A stretch of DNA of 64,000 nucleotides from Escherichia coli (GTDB lineage: Bacteria > Pseudomonadota > Gammaproteobacteria > Enterobacterales > Enterobacteriaceae). The number at the start of each line of letters is the position of its first letter. The stretch's first letter is position 1. The notes under the pieces are model-generated. The model ran no database searches. It was not told the origin of the DNA and worked only from the letters and a program-made list of their open reading frames with translations. Where the stretch lies: the NCBI RefSeq assembly GCF_013122565.1, contig NZ_CP053258.1; one strand, given 5' to 3'. The position numbers were made by a program, and so were the translations under genes. Positions 2,365 through 59,346 of the stretch are shown here, in pieces.

Positions 2365-2507
2365 ACGGTAAAGCCCTCACCGAAGCGAGTGCTTGAAGGA
2401 GAAGGGTTATGATGCGACTTGCCATCATACTGATTGTACTGTTACTCATAAGTTTCCCAGCTTATTAACAGTCAGTCTCAGGGGCGGAGTCATCCTCCCT
2501 TACCCTT
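2365..2507 (-). ncRNA. Sib antisense sRNA (antitoxin), copy 2; ends approximate
   Basis: same promoter and hairpin architecture as copy 1, shifted by 393 bp (plus-strand 2538..2543 and 2515..2520). Confidence 0.45.
2409..2468 (+). CDS. Ibs-family type I toxin, second copy (MMRLAIILIVLLLISFPAY)
   Basis: paralogous 19-codon ORF with the same RBS; two substitutions relative to copy 1 (V5A, G17P). Confidence 0.7.
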   Translation: MMRLAIILIVLLLISFPAY

Positions 2508-2568
2508 ACTCACTAAATTAGGTCAAAGAATCAACGATGTCAATCAGGGCGATGCAGGTGTGTCGCCC

Positions 2569-3117
2569 TCACCACTCCCAGACTTTCGACGGTGTAACCA
2601 CCGCAGGAAGAGGGATATCCCACTCTTCAACGGGGAGTTTTTCCACCAACTGACAATCATGCGCATAACCCACCGGTTGCATTTTATAGTGCTGCCAGTT
2701 TTGTAAGGTCCGATCATAAAAACCACCGCCCATTCCCAGGCGCTGGCCGTACTCATCAAAGGCGACCAGCGGTGTGATCAACACGTCTAATCGGGAAAGG
2801 GGTAGCACGTCACGCACATCCAATTTTGGCTCATGGATCTTCAACCTGTTCATCACCAGTTCGCTTTGCGGATGGTAATTCAGGAACAGCAAATTACCGG
2901 CACTAAAGGGATGCAAAACTGGAAGATATACGCGCTTACCGGCGCGCCAGAGTTGTTCTATGAGTGGCTGGGTGTCGAGTTCGCCATCAAAAGAGAGGAA
3001 TACAGCGACCGTATGTGCCATCACCACCGGGGGATAAGTCATCATCCGGGTAGCGGCTTGTTGACCCATTTCCTGCTGTTGTTCCGGCGTTAACGTACGA
3101 CGACGTTGCCGAATCAT
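2569..3117 (-). CDS. ygfA: 5-formyltetrahydrofolate cyclo-ligase family protein
   Basis: 182 aa from MIRQRRRTLTPEQQ...; the ORF-track 248 aa form is an upstream extension that runs through ssrS. Confidence 0.85.
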   Translation of the reverse strand: MIRQRRRTLTPEQQQEMGQQAATRMMTYPPVVMAHTVAVFLSFDGELDTQPLIEQLWRAGKRVYLPVLHPFSAGNLLFLNYHPQSELVMNRLKIHEPKLDVRDVLPLSRLDVLITPLVAFDEYGQRLGMGGGFYDRTLQNWQHYKMQPVGYAHDCQLVEKLPVEEWDIPLPAVVTPSKVWEW

Positions 3118-3189
3118 TTTGCGGATTTCTTGTCGGGATAATGTCAGTGGGAGTTCTGGTAGTTGCGTCATGGCTGGTGCCAGATAAGA

Positions 3190-3375
3190 AGGGAATCTCC
3201 GAGATGCCGCCGCAGGCTGTAACCCTTGAACCCTTGGTTCAAGGTGAATGTGTCGTCGCAGTTTTAAGGCTTCTCGGACGGACCGAGCATGCTCACCAAC
3301 CGCGGAGCGCCACATTCTTGTGGTATGAAATATCGGCTCAGGGGACTGGCCCGCTTGCGAACATCTCAGAGAAAT
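3190..3375 (-). ncRNA. ssrS: 6S RNA
   Basis: plus strand carries the reverse complement of the 6S RNA sequence (5' AUUUCUCUGAGAUGUUCGCAAGCGGGCCAGUCCCCUGAGCC ... GGAGAUUCCCU 3'); immediately upstream of ygfA as in the known ssrS-ygfA operon. Confidence 0.9.
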
Positions 3376-3416
3376 TTTGTCTTCACGGTTACTCTACCAC
3401 AGTAAACCGAAAAGTG

Positions 3417-3812
<396 letters not shown>

Positions 3813-3913
3813 CTATAGCTACCCTGATGAGAAGAGACAAGCCCTTTTCTGGTCCACCAGGGCCCAAAGTGGTAGCATATCATGAATATTCCTCCCTTTG
3901 ACGACGAATGCTT

Positions 3914-4492
3914 ATGTCTATACAGAACGAAATGCCTGGTTACAACGAAATGAACCAGTATCTGAACCAACAAGGGACGGGTCTGACCCCTGCCGAGATG
4001 CATGGTTTAATCAGTGGGATGATATGTGGCGGTAACGATGACAGCTCATGGCTGCCGCTACTTCACGACCTGACGAACGAAGGCATGGCTTTCGGTCATG
4101 AGCTGGCACAGGCACTGCGTAAAATGCACTCTGCCACCAGCGATGCCCTGCAGGATGACGGCTTCCTTTTTCAGCTTTATCTGCCTGATGGCGATGATGT
4201 CAGCGTTTTCGATCGGGCTGATGCACTGGCAGGTTGGGTCAATCACTTCCTGCTTGGTCTTGGCGTTACGCAACCGAAGCTGGACAAAGTGACCGGAGAA
4301 ACCGGTGAAGCCATCGACGATCTGCGTAACATCGCGCAGCTGGGCTACGACGAAGACGAAGATCAGGAAGAGCTTGAAATGTCGCTTGAAGAGATCATCG
4401 AATACGTTCGTGTTGCCGCGCTGTTATGCCACGACACCTTTACTCATCCGCAACCGACCGCGCCAGAAGTACAAAAACCGACTCTACACTAA
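3914..4492 (+). CDS. ygfB: UPF0149 family protein YgfB
   Basis: 192 aa from [13 protein letters not shown]...; the ORF track starts two codons earlier. Confidence 0.85.
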
Positions 4493-4517
4493 AAACAAAA
4501 AACGTAAGGAGAGTGTT

Positions 4518-5843
4518 ATGAGTGAGATATCCCGGCAAGAGTTTCAGCGTCGCCGTCAGGCCCTGGTGGAGCAAATGCAACCCGGCAGCGCTGCGCTGAT
4601 TTTTGCTGCACCAGAAGTAACACGTAGCGCCGACAGCGAATACCCCTATCGTCAGAACAGTGACTTCTGGTACTTCACCGGCTTTAACGAACCGGAAGCG
4701 GTGCTGGTGCTGATTAAAAGCGATGACACTCATAACCACAGCGTTCTGTTTAACCGCGTTCGCGACCTGACGGCGGAGATCTGGTTTGGCCGTCGCTTAG
4801 GCCAGGATGCCGCGCCAGAGAAACTGGGCGTTGACCGCGCACTGGCATTCAGCGAAATCAATCAGCAACTTTATCAACTACTTAACGGCCTGGATGTGGT
4901 TTACCATGCCCAGGGCGAATATGCATATGCTGATGAAATCGTGAACAGTGCGCTGGAAAAACTGCGTAAAGGTTCGCGGCAAAATCTCACCGCACCGGCA
5001 ACGATGATCGACTGGCGTCCCATTGTTCATGAAATGCGCCTGTTCAAATCACCAGAAGAGATTGCCGTACTCCGCCGCGCGGGTGAAATCACCGCCCTGG
5101 CGCATACCCGGGCGATGGAAAAATGTCGTCCGGGAATGTTCGAGTACCATCTGGAAGGCGAAATTCACCACGAATTTAACCGCCACGGCGCGCGCTATCC
5201 TTCCTATAACACCATTGTCGGCAGCGGTGAAAACGGCTGCATTCTGCATTACACCGAAAACGAGTGTGAACTGCGCGACGGCGATCTGGTGTTGATTGAC
5301 GCGGGTTGCGAATACAAAGGTTACGCTGGCGATATTACCCGCACCTTCCCGGTCAACGGCAAATTCACTCAGGCTCAGCGTGAAATCTACGACATTGTGC
5401 TGGAGTCTCTCGAAACCAGCCTGCGCCTGTATCGTCCGGGAACTTCCATTCAGGAAGTCACCGGTGAAGTGGTGCGCATCATGGTTAGCGGCCTGGTAAA
5501 ACTCGGCATCCTGAAAGGTGATGTTGATGAACTGATCGCTCAGAACGCCCATCGTCCTTTCTTTATGCATGGCCTTAGCCACTGGTTAGGACTGGATGTC
5601 CATGACGTGGGTGTTTATGGTCAGGATCGCTCGCGCATTCTGGAACCGGGGATGGTACTGACCGTAGAGCCTGGTCTGTATATCGCGCCGGATGCGGATG
5701 TGCCGGAACAATATCGCGGTATCGGCATTCGTATTGAAGACGACATTGTGATTACCGAAACCGGCAACGAAAATCTCACCGCCAGCGTGGTGAAAAAGCC
5801 GGAAGAAATTGAAGCGTTGATGGCTGCTGCGAGAAAGCAATGA
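4518..5843 (+). CDS. pepP: Xaa-Pro aminopeptidase (aminopeptidase P II)
   Basis: 441 aa from MSEISRQEFQRRRQ with RBS aaggagag; M24B metallopeptidase motifs (HGLSHWLGLDVHD); ORF-track 5' extension trimmed. Confidence 0.95.
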   Translation: MSEISRQEFQRRRQALVEQMQPGSAALIFAAPEVTRSADSEYPYRQNSDFWYFTGFNEPEAVLVLIKSDDTHNHSVLFNRVRDLTAEIWFGRRLGQDAAPEKLGVDRALAFSEINQQLYQLLNGLDVVYHAQGEYAYADEIVNSALEKLRKGSRQNLTAPATMIDWRPIVHEMRLFKSPEEIAVLRRAGEITALAHTRAMEKCRPGMFEYHLEGEIHHEFNRHGARYPSYNTIVGSGENGCILHYTENECELRDGDLVLIDAGCEYKGYAGDITRTFPVNGKFTQAQREIYDIVLESLETSLRLYRPGTSIQEVTGEVVRIMVSGLVKLGILKGDVDELIAQNAHRPFFMHGLSHWLGLDVHDVGVYGQDRSRILEPGMVLTVEPGLYIAPDADVPEQYRGIGIRIEDDIVITETGNENLTASVVKKPEEIEALMAAARKQ

Positions 5844-59272: not shown

Positions 59273-59346
59273 GCGGGCGTAGTTCAATGGTAGAACGAGA
59301 GCTTCCCAAGCTCTATACGAGGGTTCGATTCCCTTCGCCCGCTCCA
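59273..59346 (+). tRNA. glyU: tRNA-Gly (anticodon CCC)
   Basis: 74 nt cloverleaf GCGGGCGUAGUUCAAUGGUAGAACGAGAGCUUCCCAAGCUCUAUACGAGGGUUCGAUUCCCUUCGCCCGCUCCA; encoded CCA. Confidence 0.95.

Follow-up and report, generated by a model that had tools for sequence, protein, structure and literature searches.

Descriptions of the ssrS-ygfA unit date back to the 1980s, and to our knowledge every E. coli genome is annotated with it. The product of ssrS, 6S RNA, resembles an open promoter and is bound by the sigma70 holoenzyme of RNA polymerase, which becomes free again when it transcribes a short product RNA (pRNA) from the 6S RNA (PMC3299989, PMC10578484, PMC12152304; for the role of the pRNA in RNA polymerase release, PMC3299989 and PMC10578484). 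Transcription from a proximal sigma70-dependent promoter gives a 194-nt short precursor and transcription from a distal sigma70/sigmaS promoter a 404-nt long precursor (PMC10406553), and two promoters with two 6S precursors are also described in PMC12152304. At the other end of the RNA, PMC3299989, citing Chae et al. 2011, places the 3' end at Rho-dependent termination within ygfA. Co-transcription of the two genes has been stated both in PMC2848244, which describes a conserved bicistronic arrangement, and in PMC4064990, which describes a conserved linkage; the functional reason for the linkage of 6S RNA and ygfA is unknown according to PMC2848244.

The locus analyzed here lies on the minus strand of a 64,000-nt stretch of E. 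coli DNA (the window), and is almost certainly this known dual-function transcription unit, consisting of ssrS and ygfA (current name fau). The unit being already known, the sole addition made by our analysis is comparative support for a 200-aa over a 182-aa start of fau.

The initial annotation had placed 6S RNA on the reverse strand at 3190–3375 and proposed a covariance model as the check, and its placement proved correct to within 2–3 nt. The Rfam model RF00013 matched positions 3375–3192 (minus strand) with 139.8 bits (E = 2.2e-28), three times the gathering score of 46.4 bits, and the match covered model positions 1–187 of 187 and was not truncated, which indicates a full-length 6S RNA. 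By this match the mature RNA is 184 nt long (3192–3375), compared with 183 nt in the K-12 annotation of ssrS, equivalent to 3193–3375, and it is identical to K-12 ssrS (b2911) at 183/183 positions. Folded alone, the RNA has a minimum free energy of −80.5 kcal/mol (z = −5.6), and 0/200 shuffles fold as well. The identification as 6S RNA is far beyond chance, considering this fold z-score and the near-identity of the zapA–fau block to K-12. The locus is also useful as a control, as it is an instance of an ncRNA recognized from raw sequence to within 2–3 nt.

To collect related loci, each species was represented by a single genome and searched with a pattern that combines two conserved blocks of 6S RNA. 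This yielded 120 loci that span Enterobacterales, Orbaceae, Moraxellaceae, Spongiibacteraceae and others, a sample biased towards E. coli-like 6S RNAs because the pattern fixes the two blocks. An alignment (A1) was made of the window sequence and 95 non-identical 6S sequences from the related loci (96 in total). Compensatory double changes occurred in 26/40 predicted pairs, and standard pairs were found in 95.6% of cells, compared with 31–47% when the partners were slid by 1–3 columns. Changes on both sides of a pair were seen in 436 cells, versus 114 ± 18 in shuffles, and the observed covariation was reached by 0/500 shuffles on any measure. Covariation is seen in the closing stem and in the terminal stem-loops, and could not arise in the two blocks that the search pattern holds constant. 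Overall, 6S RNA forms an extended, mostly double-stranded hairpin with a large central bubble, in which the closing stem, the bubble and the terminal stem are backed by covariation. The pRNA template (6S nt 25–44, GGCCAGUCCCCUGAGCCGAU; reverse complement AUCGGCUCAGGGGACUGGCC) was located in the sequence at 3332–3351 (minus strand), where it is intact, identical to K-12 and part of the 5' strand of the central bubble. Synthesis of the pRNA presumably starts opposite U44, which corresponds to position 3332.

RNAalifold, applied to the MAFFT alignment, preferred a local hairpin in the 3' half of 6S RNA, CCUUGAACC(N6)GGUUCAAGG (A1 columns 144–167, window positions ~3244–3224, minus strand). This hairpin is fully conserved and has no covariation, since it is fixed by the pattern, and it competes with the internal stem of the Rfam model formed by GGUUCAAGGG and CCCCUGAGCC. 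As both hairpin blocks are pattern-fixed, covariation cannot choose between the CCUUGAACC/GGUUCAAGG and GGUUCAAGGG/CCCCUGAGCC pairings, a known ambiguity. The local hairpin may be the conserved hairpin that, going by the title of PMC3504675, orchestrates 6S release. For the RNA as a whole, binding to the sigma70 holoenzyme and accumulation in stationary phase would carry over from the 100% identical K-12 RNA (PMC3299989, PMC1874619); loss of holoenzyme binding is very unlikely, given that the molecule studied in K-12 has exactly this sequence.

The second gene of the unit was confirmed where it had been noted, directly downstream of 6S RNA on the same strand; the last nucleotide of its stop codon is at 2569. 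We place fau at 2569–3171 (minus strand), with a preferred start at ATG 3171 (MTQLPEL...) and a product of 200 aa, so that 20 nt separate the 3' end of 6S RNA from the start codon. Fau matches the Pfam family PF01812 with 160.8 bits (cut-off 27) over profile positions 1–186 of 186, and its 200-aa form matches two NCBIfam models, the equivalog NF007661 with 447 bits (cut-off 343; positions 2–198 of 198) and TIGR02727 with 178.6 bits (cut-off 84.9; positions 1–182 of 182). These family matches identify the protein as a 5-formyltetrahydrofolate cyclo-ligase (5-FCL), which is predicted to convert 5-formyl-THF to 5,10-methenyl-THF in an ATP-dependent manner. The 5-FCL gene directly follows ssrS on the same strand, and no intrinsic terminator separates the two, as in the gammaproteobacterial ssrS-ygfA transcription unit.

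This co-linearity, which the initial annotation had also described, agrees with the annotated E. coli genomes and with 96 other gammaproteobacterial loci. Of the 120 related loci, 96 have a fau homolog on the same strand no more than 400 nt downstream of 6S RNA, and at least 700 nt of downstream sequence was available for 104. Most of the related loci also have zapA upstream on the same strand. In the window this conserved neighbor occupies 3417–3746 (minus strand; PF05164, 74.5 bits) and is annotated in K-12 and in strain PT62; the order zapA–ssrS–fau is likewise annotated in both. Of 5426 complete E. coli genomes, 5424 contain 80% or more of the 2.2-kb region. The named Acinetobacter loci (L034, L040, L045, L053, L059, L070, L081, L084, L118 and L120) had neither a detectable fau downstream nor a zapA upstream, with only ~400 nt of downstream sequence available for L081. 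Several metagenome-assembled genomes (MAGs) of Moraxellaceae keep fau downstream of 6S RNA, and given the Acinetobacter loci that do not, the ssrS–fau linkage appears to have been lost in Acinetobacter.

For the transcription start, a promoter scan identified a proximal P1-like site at 3391–3420 (minus strand; ATGACA-18 nt-TAGAGT with an upstream TG, 9/12 matches). The −35 hexamer of this site shares sequence with the zapA stop codon, and the site predicts a start near 3384, which leaves a 9-nt leader. A candidate distal P2-like promoter inside zapA was read from the sequence at 3607–3635 (minus strand; TTGCAA-17 nt-TAGAGT); with 8/12 matches it falls below the 9/12 cut-off of the consensus scan and is not listed by it. 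From this candidate, transcription would begin near 3599/3600, at about −224 relative to the 5' end of 6S RNA. Transcription of ssrS reportedly starts at −9 and −224, positions that are attributed to Kim & Lee 2004. The P2-like candidate would correspond to the published distal promoter, and together the two predicted sites fit the published scheme of a proximal and a distal promoter. The same scan found no promoter-like site on the minus strand from 3391 to 2058.

For the 3' end, a scan of the interval between ssrS and fau found no intrinsic terminator. Directly 3' of 6S RNA lies a C-rich, G-poor tract (3117–3194, minus strand; 28 C and 10 G in 78 nt), a candidate Rho-utilization region that spans the 6S–fau spacer and the first 18 codons of fau. 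Its C/G ratio of 2.8 is the highest of all 78-nt segments on the minus strand between 3800 and 2400 (median 0.95), and this maximum fits partial termination by Rho early in ygfA. A stem-loop after fau (GGGCGA...TCGCCC, ~2566–2545, minus strand) was considered as an intrinsic terminator and rejected: it has a z-score of −0.91, 34/200 shuffles were as good, and there is no T-run. The terminator scan of the sequence after fau did not report this stem-loop, and the lone terminator-like hit on the minus strand within fau (2742–2727) is in the middle of the coding sequence and at chance level (3 found, 1.9 expected). The stem-loop is followed at 2543 by TTGACA, a promoter-proximal element of the first Sib RNA.

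Two other ways of reading these genes were weighed against a shared transcript from which 6S RNA and the fau mRNA derive. If ssrS and fau were merely adjacent, fau would be transcribed from a promoter of its own in or after ssrS, as might be argued from a bla insertion in ssrS that had no polar effect on ygfA (PMC2848244). We consider this highly improbable: the distance from the 6S 3' end to the conserved fau start is only 20 nt, the scan found on the minus strand neither a promoter-like site from 3391 to 2058 nor an intrinsic terminator between the genes, the tight same-strand arrangement recurs in 96 scanned loci from several gammaproteobacterial families, and co-transcription is stated in PMC2848244 and PMC4064990. 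The other reading concerns the ORF list, which gives a 248-aa ORF at 2569–3315 (minus strand) with an ATG at 3315 inside ssrS. Were it real, the N-terminus of Fau would be extended by translation of the 3' two-thirds of the 6S gene, and the same DNA would encode both an RNA and a protein. Between ATG 3315 and the fau stop codon the frame is indeed uninterrupted in the window and in two related loci, L009 (E. albertii) and L092 (a divergent E. coli). These are the only 2/97 loci in which it is open through the whole of 6S RNA, and the only ones among the 97 with the window's ATG at −123. For the 97 loci retained by a same-strand and distance filter, the fau frame was followed upstream, and an in-frame stop was met in 95, of which 56 are inside 6S RNA and 39 between 6S RNA and fau; in Citrobacter, Enterobacter and Kosakonia the stops are 47–72 nt upstream of the 6S 3' end. 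With stops in 95/97 loci, the extension is an accident of the Escherichia 6S sequence and not a conserved coding feature. The 48 codons in question (3172–3315, minus strand; 124 nt within ssrS) have no NCBIfam family match in residues 1–48, and the PF01812 domain begins only at residue 61 of the 248-aa ORF. Furthermore, base-pair changes in the overlapped segment are compensatory, as is typical of a structured RNA, the mature 6S RNA is cut out of the transcript, the ATG is within a stable helix, and RefSeq lengths of fau are 200 aa (PT62) or 182 aa (K-12), never 248 aa. A 248-aa protein was rejected on the grounds of the extension without a family and the stops; the cross-genus comparison effectively refutes it, and the initial annotation, which had called this ORF an artifact, was right to do so. 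Over-extension of fau through an RNA gene by a naive ORF listing is a matter of annotation hygiene.

Within the shared transcript, the start of fau is the part of the annotation on which references differ. PGAP annotates fau of strain PT62 as 603 nt (200 aa), whereas K-12 MG1655 RefSeq annotates b2912 as 549 nt (182 aa, MIRQRRR), equivalent to 2569–3117 (minus strand), a start 18 codons downstream of the PGAP start at 3171. We considered ATG 3171 the probable true start. A start at ATG 3117, with the 54 nt from 3171 to 3118 as an untranslated leader, is unlikely, notwithstanding that it is the one annotated in K-12 and that the 182-aa form passes both NCBIfam cut-offs (426 bits for NF007661 and 170.3 bits for TIGR02727). 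These scores are 21 and 8 bits below those of the 200-aa form, as the shorter protein is without profile positions 1–16 of NF007661 and 1–7 of TIGR02727, and position 1 of the Pfam profile aligns 6 residues upstream of Met 3117. That Met is not conserved outside Escherichia: Citrobacter, Enterobacter, Kosakonia, Phytobacter and others have L, D, Q, T, H or I at the aligned position. The segment before it, in contrast, is conserved as protein. After 6S RNA, the frame opens with an ATG 18–28 nt past the RNA in Citrobacter, Enterobacter, Kosakonia, Phytobacter, Pseudocitrobacter, Pluralibacter and others, and it encodes MT(Q/L/S)...SRQxIR, homologous to residues 1–18 of the 200-aa Fau, and an "MT.." start is kept across Enterobacteriaceae. 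No Shine-Dalgarno sequence was recognizable in the 20 nt upstream of either ATG, a point that lends 3117 some weight, so the choice between the two was made on conservation and profile coverage alone.

The preferred start at 3171 also places initiation of fau within the rut-like tract. A more tentative reading, to which we give rather less than even credence, is that initiating ribosomes cover the Rho loading site and in this way set the balance between termination and read-through. The start codon in this reading is backed by conservation and by the PGAP annotation, and the competition between translation and Rho is what we infer from the overlap. If the whole reading were true, the K-12 reference annotation of fau would be 18 codons too short, initiation of fau would decide between Rho termination, which gives a 6S precursor, and read-through, which gives fau mRNA, and formation of the 6S 3' end would be coupled to expression of folate salvage.

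Taking co-transcription, Rho termination, RNase processing, polymerase binding and pRNA release from the literature or by inference from the sequence, we propose that the unit would work as follows. Transcription would start at the proximal promoter, ~9 nt upstream of ssrS, and at the distal promoter, ~220 nt upstream of ssrS and inside zapA. RNases would then remove the 5' leaders to leave the 183/184-nt 6S RNA, which, as a long irregular hairpin with a bubble at its center, is predicted to mimic an open promoter and to sequester the sigma70-RNA polymerase holoenzyme in stationary phase. During outgrowth, the polymerase would copy 6S nt 44 to 25 into a short pRNA, upon which 6S RNA would rearrange and the enzyme would be freed. 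As there is no intrinsic terminator after 6S RNA, most transcripts would end in a Rho-dependent manner in the C-rich, G-poor region over the first fau codons and would be shortened to the 3' end of mature 6S RNA. Read-through transcripts would carry fau and give rise to 5-formyltetrahydrofolate cyclo-ligase, with translation most likely starting from ATG 3171 (200 aa); the 248-aa ORF is not a gene product.

Several neighboring features of the window were recorded alongside this analysis. Between fau and serA, a sib/ibs type I toxin-antitoxin module is tandemly duplicated (1877–2558). The two Sib RNAs are at 2000–2150 and 2393–2543 (minus strand; Rfam SIB_RNA, 133.8 and 132.8 bits), and on the opposite (plus) strand are two Ibs ORFs of 19 aa each, MMRLVIILIVLLLISFGAY at 2016–2075 and MMRLAIILIVLLLISFPAY at 2409–2468. 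The repeat is 289 nt long, and its two copies share 92% identity and are spaced 393 nt apart. The inter-copy junction was at least 80% covered in 1868/5426 complete E. coli genomes, and the duplicated state appears to be common to roughly a third of them. On the plus strand, the listed 512-aa ORF of pepP (4305–5843, from a GTG) overlaps the 3' end of ygfB (3908–4492), an over-extension of the same kind as that of fau. In K-12, pepP is 1326 nt long (~441 aa), and the true start is likely the Met of MSEISRQEF..., residue 72 of the listed ORF. A tRNA gene is located at 59273–59343 (plus strand; RF00005, 71.6 bits).

Among known systems, 6S-1 and 6S-2 of B. subtilis and the actinobacterial Ms1 act by the same principle, a structured RNA binding RNA polymerase (PMC3299989, PMC10578484, PMC9130861). 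The two Bacillus RNAs bind the housekeeping holoenzyme, whereas Ms1 binds the core polymerase and not the holoenzyme; the sequences, genomic contexts and processing enzymes of all three differ from those of this locus (in Bacillus, RNase J1), and none of them is present here. Against its own families, the locus shows no notable difference: the RNA matches RF00013 at full length and at three times the gathering score, having the sequence of the founding member, and the protein matches the PF01812/NF007661/TIGR02727 profiles end to end and well above their cut-offs. The closest counterpart is K-12 ssrS (b2911)–fau (b2912), which has the same gene order and strands and is flanked by zapA and by sibC/ibsC–serA. 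Over the block from zapA through fau (3900–2544), the two sequences differ by 8 mismatches in 1357 nt with no indels, and 5 of the 8 substitutions are within fau, stop codon included. Downstream, there are two tandem sib/ibs modules here compared with one in K-12, and for fau itself we prefer the 200-aa start where K-12 is annotated with the 182-aa start.
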